DNA of 64,000 nt from an uncultured bacterium (lineage in GTDB: Bacteria; Patescibacteriota; Saccharimonadia; UBA4664; SCTI01). The first letter of the stretch is position 1. Each line of letters opens with the position of its first letter. This document shows, one piece after another, positions 51,746 to 64,000 of the stretch. The notes beneath the pieces are model-generated. The model was not told where the DNA came from, made no database searches, and worked only from the letters and a program-made list of their open reading frames with translations. Where the stretch lies: assembly GCA_963721685.1 (NCBI GenBank), contig CAVRJJ010000005.1, forward strand, positions 311,367 to 375,366, read 5' to 3'. Position numbers and translations under genes: made by a program.

Positions 51746-52308
51746 TACCTCGTTTCGTTGTTGTTCAAGGTACTACTTGCTATGTTCAGGTCACATTGCT
51801 TGCTGACCTAAAGCCGACTGATAATTACGTAATTCTCAACCAACTCCAGACCATAAAGGTATTGGAATTAAAAATCACCGCCAGTGCGGTGACCGTTGAG
51901 ATTGATTATTGCCAGTTAAACGGTACTACAGGGCGGCGCGAAGCAAACTCAGCAGCAGGAATGGGCTGGAGGAGGTAGGGGTTGAGTTGGTAGTTACTCT
52001 AGTCATTATGGAGGAGATTGTGACATATGTAACTATTTGTGTCAACCGACCGGCACGTGGGCACCCTCCCCGCATCCTCGCATGATAGTACAAAAGTTAC
52101 CTAATGAACCCCTATAAGGTAGGCAACTTTTGTACGGCTTTTAACTAATGGAAGATGTCCCTGATAATTCTAACGGTCTTTGCCTACTAATCGCCCAATC
52201 CACTATGTAGCCCCCATCTATAAGCGTTGTAAGAAAAACATTATTCGCAAATTTTTATTGTAGAGAGAGCTAATTACCATTATACTTATGCTTATAAGCA
52301 AGGGTGTG

Positions 52309-53529
52309 ATGAAGTCATTGATGCTGGGGTGGGAATTGCCCCCATATAATAGCGGCGGCCTAGGAGTGGCGTGTTACCACCTCTGTGAAGCTATGGCCGA
52401 GCGCAACATCGAGATAGATTTTGTTGTCCCTTATCTAGAAAAACACGGTGTAGAGTTTATGAATGTCATACCTGCCTTGCCGGTGCCCTCTCATATTACC
52501 CGGCGGGCAGGCGGCATTTATGACAGCCATGAATGGACTGAAGAGATGCCGGCCGGAACCGACGTAATGCCGGGCAACTTGCATCAACAGCGGGCGCATC
52601 TTACCTCCTTTACCAAACAATACGTGAAGCGCAACCGTATTGATGTTATCCATGCCCATGAGTGGCTGACCTTTGAAGCAGGAGTTGCCGCGAAAGAACT
52701 AACCGGTAAACCGCTGATCGCCCATGTTCACGCCACGGAGTTTGACCGTTCCGGTGAGCTTTACGGAAATCCGCTTGTACACGACATAGAGCAAACCGCC
52801 CTTAGCGTGGCCGATCGTATTATTGCGGTGAGTCAGCTTACTAAAGATTTGATTGTACGAAACTATGGCATTCCGGGTGAAAAGATTGAGGTAATCCATA
52901 ACGGGCTAACCCCGGCGCAGCTGCATGCCTCGGGCGACGCCGCCAGCTATCAGTATATCCGGGCCATGAAGCATCTGGGATATAAGGTGGTGGTAAACGT
53001 GGGCAGGTTAACCGCCCAAAAGGGGTTGCGTTATCTGCTTGAAGCGGCAGCCCGGGTGATTGAAAAAAATCCTAAAACCCTATTTCTGCTGGTTGGCAGC
53101 GGGGAGATCCGCAATGAGTTGATTGGCCGTTCGGCAGAACTTGGCATTTCTGAAAACATTATCTTTACCGGCTTTTTACGGGGAATCGCGTGGCGTGACG
53201 CTTTCGCGATAGGCGACTTGTTTGTTATGCCTTCGGTATCTGAGCCATTTGGCTTAACCGCCCTGGAGTCGCTGGCGTTAGGCACACCAGTGCTGCTTTC
53301 GCGTACGTGCGGGGTTGCCGAGGTTGCGCGCAATACCCTTCAAGTTGATTATTGGGATACGAGGACCATGGCCGATAATATTCTGGCTGTGCTCGACCAG
53401 CCGGCGTTGCATGATGAATTGCTTATTAACGGCCGCCGCGACATTGCCGGCATGGCTTGGAAGCGGGCGGCGGAACGTTGCGCCGACGTATATGAGTCGA
53501 CCGCGGGCTTAAAAGAGGTGCTGGCATGA
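52309..53529 (+). CDS. glycosyltransferase, glycogen/starch-synthase-like (GT4/GT5-type GT-B fold)
   Basis: ..WELPPYNSGGLGVA.. at the N-terminus, as in glycogen synthases, and ..EPFGLTALESLALGTPVL.. as the C-terminal GT-B motif. Confidence 0.7.
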   Translation: MKSLMLGWELPPYNSGGLGVACYHLCEAMAERNIEIDFVVPYLEKHGVEFMNVIPALPVPSHITRRAGGIYDSHEWTEEMPAGTDVMPGNLHQQRAHLTSFTKQYVKRNRIDVIHAHEWLTFEAGVAAKELTGKPLIAHVHATEFDRSGELYGNPLVHDIEQTALSVADRIIAVSQLTKDLIVRNYGIPGEKIEVIHNGLTPAQLHASGDAASYQYIRAMKHLGYKVVVNVGRLTAQKGLRYLLEAAARVIEKNPKTLFLLVGSGEIRNELIGRSAELGISENIIFTGFLRGIAWRDAFAIGDLFVMPSVSEPFGLTALESLALGTPVLLSRTCGVAEVARNTLQVDYWDTRTMADNILAVLDQPALHDELLINGRRDIAGMAWKRAAERCADVYESTAGLKEVLA

Positions 53530-54731
53530 GGGCCATTTGCCTTTATATGCATGTCCATCAACCGTTTCGGGTGCGTCCCTACACGATTTTTGACGCGTCT
53601 GAAGACCATGATTACTTTAATAATCCGGAATCAGAAGCCGATAACCGGCACCAGATGCGCAAGATCGCCGAAAAGTCATATTTACCAACCAACAAAATGT
53701 TGCTGGAACTGTTAAAACGTCATCCTAAATTTAAGCTAAGCTTATCCTTATCCGGCACAGTCCTAGAGCAAATGGAGCTTTGGGCGCCCGAAGCGCTGGC
53801 ATCTTTTAAACAGCTAGTCGCTACTGGAAAAGTGGAAATTGTAGCTGAAACCTATCATCACAGCTTGGCTTTTTTCTATGACCGTGAAGAGTTTGAGCGC
53901 CAGGTTAAGCTGCATGCCAAGGTCATTTTGCACCATTTTGGGGTTAAGCCCAAAGTATTTCGTAACACCGAATTAAGCTACAATAATGAGCTCGCCCATT
54001 GGGCCGATAGCGCCGGGTATAAGGCTATTATTACCGAAGGCTGGGAGCCGGTCTTGGAGTGGCGCAGCCCCAACTACGTTTACCGCCCTGCCTTTACCAA
54101 GCAAATTCGTTTACTTATGAAGAATTACCAATTAAGCGACGATATCGCCTTCCGGTTTTCCAACCGGGAGTGGGCGGGCTGGCCATTAACCGCTGAAAAA
54201 TATGTGGGTTGGTTGAACGACCTTGACGAGGACCAAACCAACGTTAACCTGTTCATGGACTATGAAACGTTTGGGGAACACCAATGGGCAGAGACCGGCA
54301 TATACTCTTTTCTCGAGAACATGGTAGGCCAGTTTCTTAACACAAAAGCTAATACTTTTCTGACACTGAGCGACGCGGCCAAAATCATTAAGCCAGCCGA
54401 CTACATCGATATTCCGCAGACGATCACCTGGGCTGACACCGAACGCGACCTGAGCGCTTGGGTTGGTAATTCTATGCAGCAGCAAGCAATTAATTCAATG
54501 TACCAGATCGGCGACGAAGTGCTAACAACGAAAGACGCGGAACTTATTGAAGATTGGCGCCGCCTGCAGGCTTCCGATCATTTTTACTATATGTGCACAA
54601 AGTATTTTAATGACGGCGATATCCACGCCTACTTCAGCCCGTATAAGTCGCCTTATGACGCCTTCATTTATTTCATGAACGCGTTACGTGATGTAAAGTA
54701 CCGGATAGCGGCCAGCCAAGGCAAACTCTAG
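53526..54731 (+). CDS. glycoside hydrolase family 57 protein
   Basis: MRAICLYMHVHQPFRV.. is the GH57 N-terminal HQP motif, and ..DYETFGEHQW.. is also GH57-typical. Confidence 0.8.
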   Translation: MRAICLYMHVHQPFRVRPYTIFDASEDHDYFNNPESEADNRHQMRKIAEKSYLPTNKMLLELLKRHPKFKLSLSLSGTVLEQMELWAPEALASFKQLVATGKVEIVAETYHHSLAFFYDREEFERQVKLHAKVILHHFGVKPKVFRNTELSYNNELAHWADSAGYKAIITEGWEPVLEWRSPNYVYRPAFTKQIRLLMKNYQLSDDIAFRFSNREWAGWPLTAEKYVGWLNDLDEDQTNVNLFMDYETFGEHQWAETGIYSFLENMVGQFLNTKANTFLTLSDAAKIIKPADYIDIPQTITWADTERDLSAWVGNSMQQQAINSMYQIGDEVLTTKDAELIEDWRRLQASDHFYYMCTKYFNDGDIHAYFSPYKSPYDAFIYFMNALRDVKYRIAASQGKL

Positions 54732-56662
54732 TGGCCCGCCACATTATCCTCAGCAACGGTGAGATGCTGGTTGGCCTCGATGAATATGGGTTGGTCCATG
54801 ACGTTTATTACCCCTACATCGGCCAAGAAAACCACGCGACCGCCCGCTATATCCATCATCGCATTGGCGTATGGGTTGAAGGTACGTTTAGCTGGCTGGA
54901 TGATGGAACCTGGGAGATAGGGACGAATTATGAAGAAGCAACCTTGATCGGCCAAGTTACGGCCTACCATGCCGGCTTGCGGGTTCGGATAGAGACCTGT
55001 GATTTCATTGACGCAGATGACTGCGTGTTAGCACGGCGTTACTGGATTACCAATGAAGGAGACGGGGAGCGTGAAATCCGGCTGTTTTTACACCAGGCTT
55101 TCCGCATAAGCAATTCCAACCAAGGCGGCACCGCGCAGTACCACCCCAAAGATCATGTCTTAGTGCACTACAAGGGGCGGCGGGCATTCGCGATCCATGC
55201 TCAAACGGCAAGCGGCACAGCCTTTGACCAATATTGTGTAGGGTTGTTTGGAATTGAGGGAAAAGAAGGTACCTACCGCGATGCCGAGGATGGTGATTTA
55301 AGCGGTAACCCGGTGGAGCACGGTATGGTGGACTCGGTTTTACGGGTGGTCCTAAAGCTTAAAAAAGGTAAGTCGGACGACGTCCAGTACTGGATGGCGG
55401 CAGCTCGTCACCCTGAAGCGGCAATCGCGCTGCACCATGAATTTAAAGCTGAAGGATTTCCCGTCCGCTATCTTGCCACTAAGCGGCTGTGGAAAGATTG
55501 GCTGCATACTAGCAAGCCTAAAATAGCTTCATTTCCGCTTAAATATCGCGCTAAAGCCGTTCAAAGCTTGTTGCTTATGAAATCCCACATTGATCAGCGC
55601 GGAGGGGTCTTGGCATCGGCCGATTCCGAGATGTTAAATTATGGCCGTGATTATTACGGTTATTGTTGGCCGCGGGATTCGGTGAATGTACTGTGGCCCT
55701 TGATTAAATTAGGATATACCGAAGAAGCGAAAAATTTCTTTGAATTTTGCGGACGAGTGAAACATAGCCATGGTTACCTTATGCATAAATATCAAATGGA
55801 CGGGGCGCTGGGCAGCAGTTGGCACCCCTACATTCACGGGGACCAGCCGGAACTGCCAATTCAGGAAGATGAAACAGCCGCGGTAGTCTTTTTAATTGAC
55901 CAATACCATCAGTATGCCGAGGACGGGGATTACGTGCGTGAGCTATACGATGTGTTGGTACGGCCGGCCGCGAACTTTATGGCCGACTATATTGATCCGG
56001 AAACGAAGCTTCCGCATGCCAGCTTCGACCTATGGGAATTTGTCTTTGGCACCCACACCTACACCGTTGCCATTACTTACGCGGCGCTTGAAGCGGCTAG
56101 CCGCCTGGCTAAGCTGTATGGCAGTATAAAGGAGGCGAAGCGTTGGCAGCGGGCGGCTGACGGGATTAAGGCGGCCGCCAACCTCCACTTATGGAATGAA
56201 CAACGCAACTATTTTTATCGGAGCTTGCGAATAGAGAAAACCGGTATGAGTTTCGATGAAACCATTGATATTGCCAGCTTGTATGGGGCCGTAACATTTG
56301 GTTTATTTGATACCACCGATGTGCGGGTCATCCAGGCACTGGAAACCGCTCAATCAACCCTGCGGGTTAATACCCCTGGCGGATGGGGGATTGCACGGTT
56401 TGAGGATGATAACTATTACCGTATGGACTCACACACCCATGGCAACCCCTGGATTGTTACCTCGTTGTGGCTGGCAAAGCTGCATAACCTTCTGGATGAT
56501 AGCTCAACATCTCAAGAGTTGTTAGATTGGGCGGCCGCGCAGATGCTTCCTTCGGGGGTTCTGGCAGAACAAATCAATCCTAAAGATGGCATTGGCGTTT
56601 CGGTAGCCCCGCTGACGTGGAGCCAAGCTGAATTTGTGGATACGCTTTTAGAGCTAAACTAA
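54731..56662 (+). CDS. GH15 glucoamylase/glucodextranase-like protein
   Basis: A 643-aa protein with an N-terminal beta-domain and a C-terminal (alpha/alpha)6-like region (..YCWPRDS.., ..NPWIVTSLWLA..), typical of prokaryotic glucoamylases. Confidence 0.7.
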   Translation: MARHIILSNGEMLVGLDEYGLVHDVYYPYIGQENHATARYIHHRIGVWVEGTFSWLDDGTWEIGTNYEEATLIGQVTAYHAGLRVRIETCDFIDADDCVLARRYWITNEGDGEREIRLFLHQAFRISNSNQGGTAQYHPKDHVLVHYKGRRAFAIHAQTASGTAFDQYCVGLFGIEGKEGTYRDAEDGDLSGNPVEHGMVDSVLRVVLKLKKGKSDDVQYWMAAARHPEAAIALHHEFKAEGFPVRYLATKRLWKDWLHTSKPKIASFPLKYRAKAVQSLLLMKSHIDQRGGVLASADSEMLNYGRDYYGYCWPRDSVNVLWPLIKLGYTEEAKNFFEFCGRVKHSHGYLMHKYQMDGALGSSWHPYIHGDQPELPIQEDETAAVVFLIDQYHQYAEDGDYVRELYDVLVRPAANFMADYIDPETKLPHASFDLWEFVFGTHTYTVAITYAALEAASRLAKLYGSIKEAKRWQRAADGIKAAANLHLWNEQRNYFYRSLRIEKTGMSFDETIDIASLYGAVTFGLFDTTDVRVIQALETAQSTLRVNTPGGWGIARFEDDNYYRMDSHTHGNPWIVTSLWLAKLHNLLDDSSTSQELLDWAAAQMLPSGVLAEQINPKDGIGVSVAPLTWSQAEFVDTLLELN

Positions 56663-57861
56663 GTTGCCCGTGAGCAAGTTGGGCAATTGTCTTCGCGCTT
56701 AAAGTCTTGAATCCAAACTTTTACGGCTTTGGGGAAAGGCTCGATATCGCGGTAGGCAATAAAGTCGGCTGCCCGGCGCAATAGCCAGCCCAGGCTGCCG
56801 TAACACTGGAGGTTTCGCCACGAAGCAATGGCCCAACGAGGACCAACCGGAATAACACTAATTCCTTCGGCTGATTTAAATACGCCGCGATGAGCTCCGG
56901 CCCGTGTGCGGGCAATATCTTTCGCTACAAAATCAGCTTGGGCAATCGCGTTTTGGGCAAGTCCGCCGTGTTCAACGGCGGCGTTATCGCCAATTACATA
57001 CATCCTAGGCTGGGCTTGGAGGTGGTAGTTAACCTGTACCCGTCCGTTCTTGGCGAGGGTAAACTGATTCGCGTTGGCTTTGAAAAACGGGTTGTTGGCT
57101 ATCCCAGCGGTCCACACAACGGTTTCCGTTGGAATTTTGCTGCCATTTACCGTTAACGAGTCGTCGCTGGCGGCTTCAACTTTAGCTCCGGTTACAACCT
57201 CTACTCCAAGATGCTCAAGCCGTTGCTTAACCCGCTTGGCCACCGCTTCGGGAAGACGGGGGAGTATGCGGGGCATGGCTTCAATAACCTTAATGCGGTA
57301 ATTTACTTTTCTAACCCCATGCAGTTTCACAATCCGCTCCAAGTATTCTCCAAGCGCGCCGGCCAGTTCCACGCCGGTAGGTCCTCCACCCACAATAAGA
57401 TAGTTTGCGTCGGTGGCTTGGTCTTCAATGAGTTGGTTATGGAGGTGGTGCTTAAAGGCTGTAGCGCTAGAGGTTGATTTTATCTCGTAACAGTATTCCG
57501 GCAGTCCTTTAATATGGAAGTAGTTGGTTACGCTCCCCAATGATAAGATGAGGTGGTCATATGTGTACTCCGCTTTGCTGGACATGGTTATGGTGCGTTT
57601 GGCATGATCAACCTTAACCGCGGTGTCCTTAAGGACAGTAACGGGTGTGTTTTTAAACATTTTCTTAAGTGGCAGGGCAACTTCGGTGCGGGAACCGCCG
57701 GTAGCGGTATGGTAAAGCTGGGGGTAGTAGGTGAACGTAGGGCTATCGGAGATCAGTGTTACCTTTATGTTGGATTGTTTGCCAATCAGGCGGGCTGCTC
57801 GAACGCCACCAAAACCACCACCAACAATTACGACCCTATGAGGCTGTTTGGGAACATTCAT
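56659..57861 (-). CDS. ndh: type II NADH:quinone oxidoreductase (NDH-2)
   Basis: ..RVVIVGGGFGGV.. is the first dinucleotide-binding site, and ..YLIVGGGPTGVELAG.. is the second GxGxxG. Confidence 0.8.
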   Translation of the reverse strand: MNVPKQPHRVVIVGGGFGGVRAARLIGKQSNIKVTLISDSPTFTYYPQLYHTATGGSRTEVALPLKKMFKNTPVTVLKDTAVKVDHAKRTITMSSKAEYTYDHLILSLGSVTNYFHIKGLPEYCYEIKSTSSATAFKHHLHNQLIEDQATDANYLIVGGGPTGVELAGALGEYLERIVKLHGVRKVNYRIKVIEAMPRILPRLPEAVAKRVKQRLEHLGVEVVTGAKVEAASDDSLTVNGSKIPTETVVWTAGIANNPFFKANANQFTLAKNGRVQVNYHLQAQPRMYVIGDNAAVEHGGLAQNAIAQADFVAKDIARTRAGAHRGVFKSAEGISVIPVGPRWAIASWRNLQCYGSLGWLLRRAADFIAYRDIEPFPKAVKVWIQDFKREDNCPTCSRAT

Positions 57862-57906
57862 CTGATATAATCATAAGCGAAACTAATCTGGAATGGCAAG
57901 GGACTA

Positions 57907-59223
57907 TTGAAAAAACAGACAATCCGTTGGTTGGCTTTAGCTACCACCGTGGTACTGGCGCTTCCAATGCTCGTTCACTGGTACACTCAAAGTGCGCTTC
58001 CTGCCTCCAGCTCCTCTGAGTATTTAATAGCCTTCGGCCGGTTGGCCGGGATGGTGGCAACCTTTGGTGTATTGATGCAGCTCATCCTGATGTCCCGGCT
58101 TCCCGGGCTGGAGCGGGGACTGGGCTTAGAGCGCCTGGTTACCATCCACCGCTTCAATGGGTATACCATTTTTTACGCCTTGCTGGCCCATCCGGCACTG
58201 TTGGTCTTAGGCTACCAAATTAACGGGATGCCGGGCCTGCTTCAGCAGTATTTTGATTTTATTCTTCATTATCCTGACGTATGGCGAGCCTGGATAGGTA
58301 GTATTTTGCTGTACGCGGTGGTCGCGAGCTCAATTGTGGTTGCCCGCCGGCGGTTGCGCTATGAGTGGTGGTACGGCATTCATTTAATGGTCTACGCCGG
58401 TATTTTGCTTGGTTTTGGCCATCAGTTAAAAATTGGCGGTGATTTTATTGGGCATGATTGGTTTATATTGTATTGGTATTTTCTTTATCTCATGGCTTTT
58501 GGCCTGCTTAGTTGGTTTCGGTTTGGTCGGCCCAGCCTTAGGTTGTTACGCCACCGGTTTAAGGTTAAGCGAGTCGTGCCCGAAGCCAACAATATTTACT
58601 CGATTTATCTCAGTGGCCGTAATATTGATAAGCTGCATCCTAAGCCGGGACAGTTTTTTGTATGGAGATTTTTAGACCGTGAGCGATGGTGGCAGTCGCA
58701 TCCCTTTTCAATGTCGCAGCTCCCGCGTTCAAACGAGCTGCGGCTAACATTTAAGGCGGTCGGGGATTTTACCAACCGACTGCACTTAGTGAAGCCGGGA
58801 ACGCCAGTGATGTTGGACGGACCGCGCGGGAGCTTCACATTGGATCTGGCCCGCGGCCGCAAGTTCCTCTTTTTGGCTGGCGGAATCGGTATCACGCCGT
58901 TGCGCACGATGCTTGAGGCTATGCCCAATAACTCAGATGCGCATTTGGTATATGCTGTCCGAAATGAAGCGGAGCGGGTGTTGACCGCGGAATTTGCTAA
59001 GCTCGCGGAAGAGAAAGGAGTAAAAATCTATTATCTTTTCTCGGAAGCAACCGGGCGATTAAAGGCCGATCAGCTCATCCAGCTGGTGCCGGATATTGCT
59101 GAGCGTGAGGTGTTTTTGTGCGGTCCGCAACCGATGATGGATGCGGCAACCGACATTATGGTGGGGCTGGGCGTTGATAAAGAGCATATATATTCGGAGC
59201 GTTTCGCGTTCTTAGGGATTTAG
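57907..59223 (+). CDS. ferric-reductase-like transmembrane oxidoreductase (FRD domain + FAD/NAD(P)-binding domain)
   Basis: Six TM helices with paired His residues, then ..HPFSMS.. (the FNR-like FAD motif) and a ..GGIGITP.. NAD(P) site. Confidence 0.7.
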   Translation: MKKQTIRWLALATTVVLALPMLVHWYTQSALPASSSSEYLIAFGRLAGMVATFGVLMQLILMSRLPGLERGLGLERLVTIHRFNGYTIFYALLAHPALLVLGYQINGMPGLLQQYFDFILHYPDVWRAWIGSILLYAVVASSIVVARRRLRYEWWYGIHLMVYAGILLGFGHQLKIGGDFIGHDWFILYWYFLYLMAFGLLSWFRFGRPSLRLLRHRFKVKRVVPEANNIYSIYLSGRNIDKLHPKPGQFFVWRFLDRERWWQSHPFSMSQLPRSNELRLTFKAVGDFTNRLHLVKPGTPVMLDGPRGSFTLDLARGRKFLFLAGGIGITPLRTMLEAMPNNSDAHLVYAVRNEAERVLTAEFAKLAEEKGVKIYYLFSEATGRLKADQLIQLVPDIAEREVFLCGPQPMMDAATDIMVGLGVDKEHIYSERFAFLGI

Positions 59224-59289
59224 CGCTCCAAAACCTGTCTGGCAATTATTCTTTCTCGGTGACATAATGATTTAAGGAGCATAAGCATT

Positions 59290-60075
59290 ATGAGCCGGAG
59301 TCATCATCACGCCCGCCCCGCCCACTTCCACCAGCGACTTTATGGTTTGCTCTGCATTCCGATTGTACTCTTAATAGTCGCCTACCTTATTGCCAATCCG
59401 GCTTCAGGCGTAAATGGAGAGGTGTCTGCGCTTTCAGTTATCGCTGCCCTCTTTGTTAGCGTCGCGCGTTTAACGGCAGCTTTTGTATTGGCCTTGATAG
59501 TGGCTGTTCCTTTTACGTTGTTAATTCACCGCAGCGCCTTAATTGAACGCAGCGTTATGCCCATGGTGGATACCGCGTATTCATTGCCGGTATTAGCGTT
59601 CTTTCCCGTCGTAATTATTTTCTTTAACCAGTATCACTTTTTAGAAGGGGCGGCGATATTTTTAATTTTTATAACCATGGTGTGGGCGCTGGTAATTAAC
59701 AGCGTGAATGGGTTGCGGATGATCCCTGAGGACATTCACGACGCGGCCGAAGCGTTTGGTATCCGCGGGCTGACAAAAATTCGACATGTAGTGCTGCCAG
59801 CTATTCTTCCCTCACTAATTAACGGTTCGTTATTGGCATGGGCGGTAAGCTGGAATGTGCTCCTTGTTGCCGAAGTGCTGCACAACTACACTCCGGGGAG
59901 AAGTGCCAATAATGACCTTTTTGGGATTGGCAGCGTAATTGTTAACGCCTCGGCGGCTGGACAAAATGCCGTGTTTATTGGCGCTGTCGGTGTGATGTTA
60001 TGCGCCATCCTGCTAATGAATTTCTTTATTTGGCAGCGCCTGCAAGACTATGCCGAACGGTACCGCTTTGAGTAA
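59290..60075 (+). CDS. ABC transporter permease (NitT/TauT-type)
   Basis: A six-TM permease with the EAA-like loop ..EDIHDAAEAFGIRGLTKIRHVVLP... Confidence 0.7.
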   Translation: MSRSHHHARPAHFHQRLYGLLCIPIVLLIVAYLIANPASGVNGEVSALSVIAALFVSVARLTAAFVLALIVAVPFTLLIHRSALIERSVMPMVDTAYSLPVLAFFPVVIIFFNQYHFLEGAAIFLIFITMVWALVINSVNGLRMIPEDIHDAAEAFGIRGLTKIRHVVLPAILPSLINGSLLAWAVSWNVLLVAEVLHNYTPGRSANNDLFGIGSVIVNASAAGQNAVFIGAVGVMLCAILLMNFFIWQRLQDYAERYRFE

Positions 60076-60790
60076 AATCATTGATTTGCATGAGGTCCAT
60101 AAGACCTACCCTGGCGCTACGCGTCCGACCCTGCATCCGTTGTCTTTTTTTGCGCTTGAAAGCGAATTTATCGTTATTATTGGACCTTCCGGATGCGGAA
60201 AATCAACGCTGTGCCGAATTATAAGTGGGCTTGAGCAGCCAAGCGGCGGCACCATTACCCGTCCCGACGAGATCGCGATGGCCTTTCAATCCGGAGCGCT
60301 GCTGCCTTGGTTAACCGCGGCCCAGAACATTGCGCTTATTTTGGAAGCGCGGGGCCTGCCGCTGGCACAGGTTAAGCGCAAAGTCCGGTTGAACCTGGAA
60401 ATGGTGGGATTACAAAAGCTGGCCGAAGCTTATCCCCGAGAACTGTCTGCCGGGCAACGCCAACGGGTTGGTTTAGCACGGGCGTTGGCAGTGGATTCAG
60501 AGGTGTTGGTGCTGGATGAACCGTTCGCCGCGCTGGACATAAAAACCACCGCGATGCTCCATGAGGACTTGCTGAAGATGGGACAGGAAACCAGCAAAAC
60601 AATTATCATGGTTTCCCATTCAATTGAAGAAGCGGTGACACTGGCCGACCGGGTCATGCTCATGAACGCCGGACGGATTGTCCGAACGTACCACCTGGCT
60701 GATTTGCCGCACCCGCGCCGGGAGGCAGCCGAAGATTTCATTCATCAGGTGCATGCCATCAGGCGTGATTTCTTGGCCCTTGAGAACTAA
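60050..60790 (+). CDS. ABC transporter ATP-binding protein (NitT/TauT-type)
   Basis: Walker A GPSGCGKST, signature LSAGQRQRV, Walker B VLVLDEPF, and an H-loop. Confidence 0.85.
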   Translation: MPNGTALSKIIDLHEVHKTYPGATRPTLHPLSFFALESEFIVIIGPSGCGKSTLCRIISGLEQPSGGTITRPDEIAMAFQSGALLPWLTAAQNIALILEARGLPLAQVKRKVRLNLEMVGLQKLAEAYPRELSAGQRQRVGLARALAVDSEVLVLDEPFAALDIKTTAMLHEDLLKMGQETSKTIIMVSHSIEEAVTLADRVMLMNAGRIVRTYHLADLPHPRREAAEDFIHQVHAIRRDFLALEN

Positions 60791-60838
60791 AGTCAAGTCT
60801 TTTAATTTTACTGTCACTCCGTATAATTCAACCTATCT

Positions 60839-62470
60839 ATGACTAATACTGCGCGGGTGAAAACGCCCAAGCCAATCTCAAAATCTGTGCCGTGGTGGCA
60901 GACCGCGGTTATTTACCAACTCTATGTCCGGTCGTTTTTTGACACTAATGCCGATGGGGTGGGGGATTTGCCTGGGGTTATCGCTAAACTTGGTTATTTA
61001 GGTGAGCTGGGGGTTGACGCGATCTGGCTTTCACCGATTACCGAAAGTGCCAATGTGGATTGGGGCTATGACGTATCAGACTATTACACAATTGATCCCA
61101 CTTTAGGCAGCATGGATGATTTTGAGCAGCTTATGAGTGAAGCTGATAAGGCTGGGATCAAAATTATTATGGATCTTGTTCCGAACCACACGAGCAATAA
61201 GCATCCTTGGTTTCAGAGCGCGTTAACCGGGCGTCACGCCAAGTACCGTGACTACTATATCTGGGCCGACCCAAAACCCGATGGCCGTCCACCTAATAAT
61301 TGGCGAGCCTCGAATGACGGTGGAAGCACCTGGGAATACCATTCGGCCACAGGACAGTACTACCTCCATAATTTTTTTAAAGCCCAGCCCGACCTCAACT
61401 GGCGTAATCCCGCCGTATTGAAAGAATTTGATAAGATAATGCGGTTTTGGTTAGACAAAGGGGTGGCTGGTTTCCGCCTTGATGTTTTTAATATGATTAT
61501 TAAGGATTCAAGTTTTCGCGATAACCCCAAAAGCCTAAAAACCGATGAGCCCGAAATTCGCCTGTACCGCCAACGGCCAATTTACAATACTTCCCAGCCC
61601 GAAGTCCACAGCATTTTAAAAAGGTGGCGGCTGACTACCGACGACTACCCTGGGGACCGCTTACTGTTGGGCGAAACCAACCGGGTTTACGACATGAAGG
61701 TGGTTGCCAGCTTTTACGGCAACCAAAACGAACTTCAACTTATATTTAATTTGGCATTCGTGGATGCCCCTTTTAAGGCGCCTCAATTGCGCGATCTTGT
61801 AACTAAGACCGAAACCGAGTTTGCCGGTAAGCATTGGCCAGCTTGGACTGGCTCAAACCACGATAAGCCCCGTTTGGCGTCCCGGTGGGCAGCTGGCGAT
61901 GAACGCAAGATCCGGGCAGCTCTTTTGATGCTCTTAGGGTTGCGGGGGACACCGGTCCTTTATTATGGTGATGAACTGGGCATGGAAGATGTTTATATCG
62001 CCCCTTGGCGCTTGAAGGATCCCCAGGGGCGAAAATATTGGCCGGTAAACGGGGGGCGTGACCGTGCGAGGACACCAATGCCGTGGAAAAACCAGTTTGG
62101 CGCCGGATTTACCGAAGAGGGGGTCAGGCCATGGTTACCATATGGCGATTTGCGTGTCCGCAGCGTGGCTTCCCAAAACAACCATGCCGACTCAACCCTG
62201 CAATTTTCCAAAGACTTAATTAGTTTTCGGCGAAACGATGCCGATTTGCTCCTCGGGGAATATGAGGGTATTCCCACCACCGAATCGGTCTGGGCATGGA
62301 AGCGGGGGAAGAATACGGTTGTGGCTATTAATTATTCTAACTACCACCATGAGATAAAAAACATGAGCGGTAAGATTATTATTGGCACTCAGCGGGAGCG
62401 TGAAGGAGAGGACCTGAAAGCATTATTACATCTGGATCCCTGGGAAGGAGTAATTCTTAAAATTAAATAG
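60839..62470 (+). CDS. GH13 alpha-glucosidase/oligo-1,6-glucosidase-like (third GH13 paralog)
   Basis: ..VIYQLYVRSF.., DLVPNHTS, GFRLDVF and YTGSNHD are GH13 conserved regions I-IV. Confidence 0.8.
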   Translation: MTNTARVKTPKPISKSVPWWQTAVIYQLYVRSFFDTNADGVGDLPGVIAKLGYLGELGVDAIWLSPITESANVDWGYDVSDYYTIDPTLGSMDDFEQLMSEADKAGIKIIMDLVPNHTSNKHPWFQSALTGRHAKYRDYYIWADPKPDGRPPNNWRASNDGGSTWEYHSATGQYYLHNFFKAQPDLNWRNPAVLKEFDKIMRFWLDKGVAGFRLDVFNMIIKDSSFRDNPKSLKTDEPEIRLYRQRPIYNTSQPEVHSILKRWRLTTDDYPGDRLLLGETNRVYDMKVVASFYGNQNELQLIFNLAFVDAPFKAPQLRDLVTKTETEFAGKHWPAWTGSNHDKPRLASRWAAGDERKIRAALLMLLGLRGTPVLYYGDELGMEDVYIAPWRLKDPQGRKYWPVNGGRDRARTPMPWKNQFGAGFTEEGVRPWLPYGDLRVRSVASQNNHADSTLQFSKDLISFRRNDADLLLGEYEGIPTTESVWAWKRGKNTVVAINYSNYHHEIKNMSGKIIIGTQREREGEDLKALLHLDPWEGVILKIK

Positions 62471-62549
62471 CCGCGCTTAATGAAAACTATGTTTACAAGC
62501 ATAATGCATCTCATATATGATATGGATGAAGTTAACACAGTGAGTTTCC

Positions 62550-64000
62550 ATGTCTGTACCAGCTCCCGTAAAGGTAACAACTACCCCCGAAACCATAAAA
62601 ATTGGACAGCGCATCACTGAATTGCGCGAGGCCAAGCTGCTTACCCAGACGGCTCTAGCCAACCTGCTTGGTACCAGCCAGAGCGCGGTTGCCCGCATGG
62701 AAAAAGGCGACCAGAACATAAGTACTAAAATGCTGGTAAAGATGGGCGAGGTGCTTGATGCCGAAATAATTGCCTTACCAAGCCATGGGCTTAACTTTAA
62801 AGTTGAAGGAGGCCGTAAACTGGCGGGAACGGTTAACACCAATACCTCTAAAAATTCAGCGGTGGTAATGCTTTGCGCGGCATTATTGAACCGTAATACC
62901 ACTACTTTAAAACGTATGCCGCGGATTGAAGAAGTTAACCGCGTAATTGAGGTGGTGGAAAGTTTGGGCGTGCACATAAAATGGCAAGGAAACGACGTGG
63001 TCGTTACTCCGCCCAAGCGCCTAAAGCTGGAGAATATAAATGTTAAAGCGGCCGTACGAACCCGCAGTGTCTTGTTATTGCTTGGGCCGCTGGTGCACCT
63101 GCTTGCCGAATTTAAGCTGCCCCAGGCAGGCGGGTGCCATTTAGGCGCCCGCACCGTCCGCCCCCATCTGTACGCCTTGGAAAAGTTTGGCGTGGCGATT
63201 GAAGCTAAAAGTAATAGCTACGCGGTTACCGCCCGCAAGCTTGAAGCGGCGGAAGTCGTGCTGTACGAATCCGGCGACACAGTCACCGAGAATGCCTTAA
63301 TGGTGGCAGCCCGGCTCCCCGGAAAAACCACAATCAAGTTCGCCTCGGCCAATTATATGGTGCAAGACCTGTGTGTTTTTCTGCAAACCCTGGGAGTTCG
63401 AATTGAAGGCATTGGAACCAGCACTTTGCGCGTATGGGGGAAGCCGGTAATCGATAAGCAAGTAAGTTACGGCATTAGCGAGGACCCCATTGAGTCCATG
63501 CTGTTTATTACCGCCGCCATCATGACCAAGTCCCAAATTACCATTAAGCGGTGTCCCATCGAGTTTTTGGAGCTAGAACTACTCAAGCTGGAAAAGATGG
63601 GCTTTGAATATACCCGCAGTGCCAAGTATCCGGCAGCTAATGGCTATACTTGGTTGGTTGACCTGGAGACCTTTCCTTCTAAGCTGACGGCGCTGGAAGA
63701 AAAAATCCACCCCAGTATCTATCCGGGATTGAATATGGACAACCTACCTTTTTTCGTGCCTATCGCTACCCAGGCGAAAGGTCAAACTCTGATTCACGAT
63801 TGGCCTTATGAAAACCGCGCTATCTACTACATGGAACTCACCAAGTTAAACGCCCAGCTAATCTTAGGTGATCCGCATCGGGTATTTGTAAATGGTCCCA
63901 CGAAGCTGCGCTCGGCTGAAGTGATTTGTCCTCCGGCACTTCGTCCGGCAGCTATTATTTTAATTGCGATGCTGGCCGCCCAGGGCACCTCAATCTTGCG
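62550..64000 (+). CDS. murA: UDP-N-acetylglucosamine 1-carboxyvinyltransferase MurA with in-frame N-terminal XRE-family HTH domain (3' end beyond window)
   Basis: My own translation from ATG 62550, just after a TGA at 62541, gives ..IGQRITELREAKLLTQTALANLLGTSQSAVARMEKGDQNISTKMLVKMGEVL.. (Cro/C1-type HTH). The MurA body follows: ..FKVEGGRKLAGTVNTNTSKNSAVVMLCAALL.., ..PQAGGCHLGARTVRPH.. (active-site Cys loop). The ORF is open to the window end. Confidence 0.75.
   Translation, partial: MSVPAPVKVTTTPETIKIGQRITELREAKLLTQTALANLLGTSQSAVARMEKGDQNISTKMLVKMGEVLDAEIIALPSHGLNFKVEGGRKLAGTVNTNTSKNSAVVMLCAALLNRNTTTLKRMPRIEEVNRVIEVVESLGVHIKWQGNDVVVTPPKRLKLENINVKAAVRTRSVLLLLGPLVHLLAEFKLPQAGGCHLGARTVRPHLYALEKFGVAIEAKSNSYAVTARKLEAAEVVLYESGDTVTENALMVAARLPGKTTIKFASANYMVQDLCVFLQTLGVRIEGIGTSTLRVWGKPVIDKQVSYGISEDPIESMLFITAAIMTKSQITIKRCPIEFLELELLKLEKMGFEYTRSAKYPAANGYTWLVDLETFPSKLTALEEKIHPSIYPGLNMDNLPFFVPIATQAKGQTLIHDWPYENRAIYYMELTKLNAQLILGDPHRVFVNGPTKLRSAEVICPPALRPAAIILIAMLAAQGTSIL

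Follow-up and report, generated by a model that had tools for sequence, protein, structure and literature searches.

A MurA fused to an XRE-type helix-turn-helix domain in Patescibacteria and Actinomycetota, with a predicted operator at its own promoter

We analyzed a 64,000-nucleotide stretch of DNA (hereafter the window; positions 311,367 to 375,366 of contig CAVRJJ010000005.1, assembly GCA_963721685.1) from an uncultured bacterium of the Saccharimonadia, which ends within a gene for MurA, the enzyme of the committed step of peptidoglycan synthesis. The MurA sequence is preceded in the same reading frame by an XRE-type helix-turn-helix (HTH) domain, and the best reading of this HTH-MurA protein is that it is probably both an enzyme and an autorepressor, following the trigger-enzyme logic of BirA, PutA and NadR. 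In outline, the N-terminal HTH, carried on a flexible linker, would recognize a 16- to 18-bp element (ATNNCA-N4-TGNNAT), presumably as a dimer because the site has dyad symmetry. This predicted operator overlaps the promoter of the gene itself, covering its spacer and extended -10. Occupancy of the operator would block RNA polymerase, so that a rising level of MurA protein would lower murA transcription.

Domain organization and distribution of the fusion

Reading and translating positions 62000-64000 placed both domains in one open reading frame (ORF), in agreement with a preliminary description of the window that had reported a Cro/C1-type HTH running without a stop into MurA. The frame is shut by an in-frame TGA at 62541-62543, and the next start codon, ATG at 62550-62552, is the sole possible start between that TGA and the HTH. 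From this ATG the ORF stays open through the window end at 64000, giving 483 codons, with ~30 C-terminal residues falling outside the window; the peptide IGQRITELRE... is present from aa 18. Using Pfam, we found HTH_3 at aa 24-70 (E = 1.9e-10, 41.1 bits against a cutoff of 23), additional matches of HTH_31 and HTH_37 to the N terminus and EPSP_synthase (PF00275) at aa 85-481 (E = 1.9e-43), with a linker of roughly 10 residues between HTH and MurA. The top NCBIfam models were those of MurA (NF006873, 279 bits; TIGR01072, 265 bits), both below cutoff in this copy, which lacks its C terminus. The features of the gene and its promoter are as follows.

62492..62497, + strand: -35-like hexamer TTTACA (promoter-like TTTACA-18 nt-TATGAT, 10/12 matches)
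62508..62523, no strand: predicted operator, 16-bp inverted repeat ATCTCATATATGATAT (sole pattern match in 64 kb; same element in relatives)
62516..62521, + strand: -10-like hexamer TATGAT, within the right operator half (promoter search)
62541..62543, + strand: in-frame TGA that closes the upstream frame (ORF reading)
62550..62597, + strand: start ATG and variable N-terminal tail, aa 1-16 (poorly conserved or gapped among homologs)
62598..62765, + strand: XRE/Cro-C1-type HTH domain, aa 17-72 (Pfam HTH_3 and HTH_31; C.AhdI match; four model helices)
62673..62717, + strand: recognition helix and following turn TSQSAVARMEKGDQN, aa 42-56 (conservation among 120 homologs; covariation with operator)
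62766..62795, + strand: flexible linker, aa 73-82 (predicted local distance difference test score, pLDDT, <50 at aa 75-79; reduced conservation)
62796..64000, + strand: MurA enolpyruvyl transferase domain, aa 83-483, ending at the window edge (Pfam, NCBIfam, Foldseek, catalytic residues)
63120..63152, + strand: active-site loop PQAGGCHLGAR, aa 191-201, with the Cys115 and Arg120 equivalents (Cys in 66/67 and Arg in 67/67 loci of the Candidate Phyla Radiation, CPR)

The preliminary description had proposed looking for the same N-terminal extension in orthologs from related genomes, and it is present there. We took the 120 best homologs (61-92% identity) from a search of 5.8 billion proteins; 119 contained both HTH and EPSP_synthase, the exception being a fragment on a 1.4-kb contig, and nearly all were ~500-535 aa long. 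Names among them include Saccharimonadia, Parcubacteria, Colwell-, Kerfeld-, Liptonbacteria and similar groups. A species-level scan (one genome per GTDB species, queried with an alignment of aa 14-135, covering the HTH and the N-terminal segment of MurA) identified at least 558 confirmed relatives in species-representative genomes of Patescibacteria/CPR and Actinomycetota, from which 80 loci were kept for locus analyses, 79 of them with a usable upstream region. ORFs were complete in 75 of the 80 kept loci and nearly all ~500-560 aa long, and in many genomes an in-frame stop codon occurs only 1-10 codons ahead of the start, so that initiation must precede the HTH. Versions of 509-511 aa occur in Streptomyces, Actinacidiphila, Nostocoides/Tetrasphaera, Ornithinibacter and Nonomuraea, and one Streptomyces 90%-identity cluster has 4337 members. 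Databases name the fusion 'UDP-N-acetylglucosamine 1-carboxyvinyltransferase' or 'helix-turn-helix domain-containing protein', without comment. That the fusion exists and that its HTH is translated is, in our judgment, virtually certain. The view that this is not the standard MurA architecture holds in so far as none of the solved MurAs among our Foldseek matches carries an HTH extension, but the fusion is not rare and is the usual form in these lineages.

A family-specific palindrome at the murA promoter

In the window, the inverted repeat ATCTCATATATGATAT lies at -42 to -27 from the ATG; 14 of its 16 positions are self-complementary and the central TCATATATGA is a perfect palindrome. An exact-seed repeat search (6-nt seeds) missed this operator because its arms are imperfect, and the dyad was established by pattern search: ATMKCA-N4-TGMKAT has exactly one match in the 64-kb window compared with 0.05 expected, and the search, which also served to look for a wider regulon, revealed no second operator site there.

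The element recurs throughout the family. A k-mer count over the 79 upstream regions of 220 nt showed TATATCA in 53, compared with 3.8 in random same-locus controls, and the family inverted repeat is 16-18 bp long and lies 20-90 nt before the start codon. It has the form TATATCA-N4-TGATATA in most CPR, ATAGCA-TATA-TGCTAT in one subgroup and ATCTCA-TAT[AC]-TGAGAT in Streptomyces, where ATCTCATAT[AC]TGAGAT stands ~10 bp before the start codon. The general pattern ATNNCA-N4-TGNNAT occurred upstream of 57 of the 79 family genes, compared with 0.56 +/- 0.78 in dinucleotide shuffles and with 4 of 663 upstream windows of other ORFs, and 58 of its 92 matches in 904 kb of loci fell within 150 nt upstream of the fusion gene (1.3% of the sequence). 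With a relaxed core, the operator was found in 73 of the 79 upstream regions.

The position of the element relative to the promoter is also conserved. In most relatives the right half-site and the next 3 nt read TGATATAAT or TGCTATACT, which is an extended -10 (the flank AAT gives TGATATAAT), and at 23 of 73 sites the left half is preceded, at a distance of 2-5 nt, by a TTGACA-like hexamer, compared with 3 in a shifted control. The syntenic relatives L084 and L085 share with the window a TTTACA upstream of the operator. Because the operator sits inside the core promoter, a bound protein would exclude RNA polymerase. From these comparisons we consider it quite likely that the HTH binds this dyad, and fairly likely that the effect on its own promoter would be repression. 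The earlier suggestion of autoregulation thus gains comparative support from a family-specific palindrome on the gene's own promoter that covaries with the recognition helix and is missing at non-fused relatives, as described below.

Several loci contain further operator-like sites. In Saccharimonadales-type promoters, extra direct TATATCA half-sites flank the -35 (for example, TATATCAttcttgacttTATATCAtggatggTATATCA) ~60-100 nt upstream of the start (L007, L011, L026, L029 and L071), bringing the number of half-sites to three or four, and binding at such promoters may be cooperative or multi-site. A Saccharibacteria/Actinomycetota subgroup has a second site, ATATCAG[CT]CTTGAGAT, inside the coding sequence (HTH codons N-I-S-L-E-M), ~170 bp downstream of the promoter operator and ~+115 to +124 nt from the KIG codon (L007 6119-6134); the loci are L007, L011, L026, L027, L029, L033, L036, L038, L043, L050, L052, L059, L061, L065 and L071. 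Synonymous variation is suppressed exactly at its half-sites, with Ile encoded by ATC in 23/24 cases (Fisher p = 2e-5 compared with other Ile columns), Leu by CTT in 23/29 (among them all five Streptomyces/Actinacidiphila genes of the set) and Glu by GAG in 23/27, and the third base of the spacer codon is variable. The window gene itself lacks this intragenic site, which may serve in looping as an auxiliary operator. Elsewhere in the 904 kb, extra dyads were isolated only: ATATCAAGTGTGATAT upstream of a UbiA-family prenyltransferase (L069 9729-9744) and ATATCATCAATGATAT upstream of a peptide deformylase (L046 9935-9950). These could be regulon members or chance matches and are too few to interpret.

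Covariation of recognition helix and operator

The operator differs between relatives according to residue 43 of the recognition helix, which is Ser or Thr: helices with TSQS go with ATATCA and those with TTQS with ATAGCA. Among 16 TTQS loci, the G-type half-site (ATAGC[AG]..TGCTAT) occupies both sides in 13 and at least one side in all 16 (one-sided at L021, L023 and L054). The G-type half-site occurs at none of the 63 TSQS loci, which have AT[AC][TC]CA types instead, such as the ATCTCA..TGAGAT half-sites of Streptomyces. In a neighbor-joining tree without support values, TTQS sequences appear in two separate places.

Relatives without the HTH were found by a profile-free scan of 1.84 billion cluster representatives, which recovered fused clusters down to 33% identity, divergent fused clusters (see below) and non-fused MurAs (P0122, 60% identity). 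Upstream of P0123, a close non-fused relative, there is no dyad and a tRNA-Cys(GCA) gene precedes (L088 4935-5007), and P0122 (L089 3-248) retains only a -10-like half-site. Without the full palindrome, these non-fused relatives serve as a negative control for the operator. The divergently oriented neighbor of P0122 is MreB-like by eye.

Conservation and structure of the HTH domain

Among the 120 homologs, the HTH is nearly as conserved as the enzyme (mean top-residue frequency of 0.74 compared with 0.79), and variation is concentrated in the N-terminal tail (aa 1-16) and the linker. In the motif TSQSAVARMEKGxQN, conservation at the 13 non-variable positions ranges from 77% to 100% and reaches ≥97% at 11 (the others are Val47, 88%, and Lys52, 77%), with positions 54 and 57 variable around the recognition helix. 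Gln44, Ser45, Gln55 and Asn56, typical base-contact residues, are near-invariant or invariant. Within a subgroup of 30 sequences, codon choice at the invariant helix residues varies freely among synonyms and synonymous sites are near saturation; because residues stay fixed while codons vary, the HTH is under purifying selection as a peptide.

Among solved structures, the controller protein C.AhdI (PDB 1y7y; E = 1.8e-7) is closest to the HTH by sequence. Weak NCBIfam matches to HipB/Y4mF, MqsA and PezA were far below cutoff and reflect generic XRE similarity; with no adjacent toxin gene in the window, we rejected an antitoxin role in a toxin-antitoxin system. A structure prediction of the full-length protein, another follow-up that had been proposed, was made with AlphaFold2 for P0001 (full length, 92% identical to the window protein) from a 118-sequence alignment (mean pLDDT of 88; predicted TM-score, pTM, of 0.80). 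In the model, the HTH (aa 13-69) forms an independent unit of four helices (aa 13-28, 33-40, 44-52 and 59-69; pLDDT 72-89), the linker appears disordered (pLDDT <50 at aa 75-79) and the MurA body is confident, its Cys loop being the only flexible part.

The MurA domain and its active site

Using Foldseek, the MurA body of P0001 was matched to solved MurA structures with TM of 0.85-0.93, that is, to the same two-domain inside-out alpha/beta barrel as in canonical MurA (E. coli and E. cloacae MurA; MurAA and MurAB of Firmicutes). Compared with these enzymes, HTH-MurA has ~80 extra N-terminal residues, an insertion of ~14 residues near aa 357-385 and only ~26-35% identity.

To describe the active site we use E. 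coli MurA numbering, with residues assigned by their motifs. In an alignment to canonical MurAs, the window protein keeps the equivalents of Lys22, Asn23, Arg91, Cys115, Arg120, Asp305 and Arg371; the Arg397 position falls outside the window and is occupied by Arg in P0001. Across 67 CPR loci, the equivalents of Lys22, Asn23, Arg91, Arg120, Asp305, Arg371 and Arg397 are present in all 67 and that of Cys115 in 66, and every actinobacterial copy has the same catalytic residues. In contrast, the place of Asp369 in the ATDLRA motif is taken throughout the clade by the Ala of a PPALRP motif. Within this motif, family members never differ at Pro461, Pro462, Ala463 or Arg465, and at least 90% of them share Leu464 and Pro466. 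Because non-fused members of the clade also have Ala at this position, the replacement is a clade trait rather than a consequence of the fusion. Full-length homologs score 317-329 against NF006873, above the subfamily cutoff of 297, but 303-318 against TIGR01072, below the equivalog cutoff of 392.7. The initial label 'canonical MurA' is therefore apt for the PQAGGCHLGAR loop and the intact catalytic residues but not for the Asp369 position or the equivalog score. Taken together, these features indicate that HTH-MurA is very probably an active, divergent MurA.

Pseudo-enzyme paralogs

In the divergent fused clusters, the Cys loop is lost and the equivalents of Lys22, Arg91, Arg120, Arg371 and Arg397 are lost in varying combinations; the recognition helix and the operator are kept. 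Such paralogs were located at L081 (8598-13056), L082, L083 (2714-8001), L086 (1453-2952) and L087 (5242-7554). At three of these (L081-L083, two clusters), the genes for P0127 and P0141 are divergent from a non-fused murA-murB pair, and these are the only loci with a second MurA-like gene nearby. Downstream of P0127 are ddl and a Mur ligase gene and downstream of P0141 a Mur ligase gene, and the shared intergenic regions of 60-84 bp contain TTGACA and the perfect palindrome ATATCATATATGATAT (L081), or ATAACATATATGCTAT (L083). For P0152, the operator heads an operon of NTP_transferase and HTH-pseudo-MurA; at L087 an NTP_transferase gene precedes the paralog and the operator lies upstream of the NTP_transferase gene; and for P0192 the operator is directly upstream of its own gene.

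Gene order and operators at these loci show an HTH-MurA module that appears to work as a regulator of peptidoglycan-precursor genes, and they point to the MurA fold as a possible sensing part. We also considered the non-fused murA beside murB (L081 and L083) as proof of a bona fide MurA clade; it is a different, also divergent MurA type and lends no support.

Versions in Actinomycetota

Fusion loci of Actinomycetota in our set are L060, L064, L067, L070, L072, L073, L075, L078 and L080, and the fusion is common in Streptomyces, Nonomuraea and Intrasporangiaceae. At L072 (5782-8295, an uncultured actinobacterial metagenome-assembled genome), an 837-aa ORF shows MurA similarity in two overlapping tblastn pieces and is likely a frameshift or assembly error.

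Actinomycete HTH-MurA genes are found near aconitase (L070, L073 and L080): in Actinacidiphila the fusion and aconitase genes point away from each other, and two Streptomyces loci have aconitase in the vicinity. According to PMC12161575, SCO5998 (murA2) adjoins SCO5999 (acnA) in Streptomyces. Other papers describe murA2 as a developmentally regulated BldM-WhiI target (PMC4125116) with a SigB-dependent promoter (PMC8346170), and DmdR1 input at murA2 also figures in the literature. The passages on murA2/SCO5998 in these three papers make no mention of an HTH. Judged by synteny only, Streptomyces MurA2 (SCO5998 / sven5810 / vnz_28735) is probably an HTH-MurA fusion. If this identity is right, it shares with the window family the 509-aa architecture and the operator of actinomycete HTH-MurA, and differs in being a second, developmentally regulated paralog beside a canonical MurA. 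A separate inverted repeat, TTGTTCGCAT(A/C)(G/C)TAGTAGAACAA, is conserved in Streptomyces ~40-70 nt upstream of the operator (L073, L075 and L080) and is presumably the site of another regulator.

In the neighbor-joining tree, actinobacterial MurA domains form one clade beside a Saccharibacteria-type clade, inside the CPR radiation, and they share the helix variant TSQSA[VI]NRIE. This would fit a transfer from Saccharibacteria-like episymbionts to their actinobacterial hosts.

Genomic context of the window gene

The surroundings of HTH-murA in the window are not a cell-wall gene cluster. An alpha-amylase gene that ends at 62470 lies upstream, and ABC-transporter and alpha-glucan genes come before it; the set at 52288-62470 is of alpha-glucan/glycogen type (GT4/GT5 glycosyltransferase, GH57, GH15 and alpha-amylase, plus the ABC transporter). 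The order ABC-amylase-HTH-murA is kept in relatives that are 71-76% identical (L084 and L085), and L084 has a gene for a UPF0259-like membrane protein downstream of murA.

Alternative explanations

Several points weigh against an enzyme that is also its own repressor. DNA binding, dimerization and repression are all drawn from comparative genomics, and the case for enzyme activity comes from sequence, with Asp369 replaced by Ala and scores below the NCBI equivalog cutoff. No clear site was found at 6 of the 79 loci. The right half-site coincides with the -10-like element, so motif conservation could partly be promoter conservation. Hybrid sites exist (L021, and L084, a TSQS relative fetched after the 79-locus set), and as few as one or two evolutionary events may underlie the covariation.

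One alternative is that the protein is chiefly a transcription factor, with the MurA fold as a metabolite sensor and a housekeeping MurA elsewhere in the genome. The dead paralogs show that the fold can be a pure regulator module beside a separate murA, the Ala at Asp369 and the missed equivalog cutoff also speak for it, and the genome is visible here over 64 kb only. Nevertheless, this explanation is improbable given the near-complete retention of the eight catalytic residues across the CPR loci. In addition, no second MurA-like gene lies in the 64-kb window or within ~6 kb of any of the 'active' loci, unlike at L081-L083, and the Streptomyces ortholog is treated as MurA2 in PMC12161575.

A second alternative is that the palindrome is only a strong promoter element, consisting of an extended -10 and a chance upstream mirror, or the site of another regulator, with the fused HTH binding elsewhere or nowhere. 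The TGATATAAT or TGCTATACT formed by the right half and its flank agrees with this, as does the fact that AT-rich CPR promoters are poorly characterized. A promoter element alone would be hard to reconcile with the rarity of the full dyad at other genes of the same genomes (4/663), its persistence in Streptomyces at 70% GC as ATCTCATATCTGAGAT, its change with the recognition helix and its absence or reduction to a -10-like half at non-fused relatives, and we consider this explanation distinctly unlikely.

It is more doubtful still that the HTH is vestigial or a protein-protein interaction module in the style of RodZ and MreB. RodZ, whose HTH is mentioned in PMC9804626, is an example of an XRE-like HTH re-used for protein binding in cell-wall synthesis. 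The window protein has no match to the RodZ domain HTH_25 (PF13413) at E ≤ 0.01 in Pfam and no transmembrane segment, the soluble MurA following directly after the HTH; since a cognate palindrome also exists, we rejected a RodZ-like role. Covariation of that palindrome with the helix and the near-invariance of Gln44, Ser45, Gln55 and Asn56 argue against an interaction module or a vestige alike.

Finally, in-frame Met codons at aa 50, 61 and 65 and a weak Shine-Dalgarno sequence (GTGAG) before ATG 62550 would be compatible with HTH and MurA as separate products, through a frameshift, an assembly artifact or exclusive use of an internal start, but this is very hard to maintain against a continuous ORF in hundreds of independent assemblies, including isolate Streptomyces genomes, and against protein-level selection on the HTH. 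The internal start 'MGEVL' that had been put forward, about 25 codons before the MurA core, is in fact Met65 (nt 62742), ~18 codons before the core and inside the last HTH helix; the other internal Met codons also fall in HTH helices, and position 65 is Met in 3% of homologs and Ile in 85%. We therefore rejected both this start and an artifactual fusion.

Discussion

An enzyme fused to its own repressor domain is a known kind of system, and databases already record both domains of HTH-MurA; the MurA instance, its operator, the helix-operator covariation and the pseudo-enzyme derivatives appear to be new. Our literature search found no paper that mentions or analyzes the fusion, although subscription journals were largely outside its coverage and absence is not proof. 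BirA (biotin protein ligase and bio-operon repressor), PutA and NadR are bifunctional trigger enzymes. HTH-MurA resembles them in that the operator is placed at the promoter of a gene of its own pathway, which would couple enzyme state or level to transcription. At the level of sequence, it combines an intact active site, a DNA-binding domain and an operator. The DNA-binding folds differ from the XRE fold of HTH-MurA (winged HTH in BirA and ribbon-helix-helix in PutA), as do the pathways, the enzyme here being that of the committed step of peptidoglycan synthesis.

Other comparisons concern the HTH. The C proteins of restriction-modification systems are small XRE-type proteins that bind palindromic boxes on their own promoters and autoregulate. 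C.AhdI shares with HTH-MurA the XRE-type domain and a palindromic box at its own promoter, but C proteins are stand-alone dimers of ~80 aa that act as activator/repressor switches of restriction-modification genes and have no enzyme domain. NF006015, an 'anaerobic benzoate catabolism regulator' with a weak match to the window HTH, also has HTH_3 N-terminal to an enzyme fold; this fold is shikimate-kinase-like, belongs to another pathway and is generally regarded as a sensor.

MurA is well known to switch between open and closed states on ligand binding, and ligands might control DNA binding through this switch. The analogy with BirA, PutA and NadR makes such control plausible, as do the pseudo-enzyme paralogs, though we hold it to be somewhat less than an even prospect. 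A broader and still more tentative model is that HTH-MurA is a one-component, metabolite-gated regulator, in which binding of UDP-GlcNAc, PEP or UDP-MurNAc would set HTH geometry or dimerization and murA transcription would read the precursor pool. The pseudo-enzyme lineages would extend this control to murA-murB and ddl-mur ligase operons. Under this model, much of the CPR would have inherited the module from an ancestor; it would have decayed repeatedly to sensor-regulators and would have been passed to actinobacterial hosts, becoming the developmental MurA2 in Streptomyces.

To our knowledge, little is understood of how transcription governs the committed step of peptidoglycan synthesis. 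The control described for MurA is mostly proteolytic (ClpCP/ReoM in Firmicutes) or allosteric (UDP-MurNAc). If HTH-MurA is indeed an enzyme and its own repressor, it would be a direct, self-contained feedback loop built into MurA itself. In a very large, uncultivated radiation where few regulators are recognizable, the fusion is the norm. Non-fused enzyme, fused active enzyme and fused pseudo-enzyme regulator would form a natural series of an enzyme turning into a transcription factor, with the MurA fold as a candidate sensor of cell-wall precursors. The neighbor-joining tree hints at gene flow between Saccharibacteria and actinobacterial hosts, and because Streptomyces carries the fusion and is genetically tractable, the prediction is testable there with a defined 16-bp operator.

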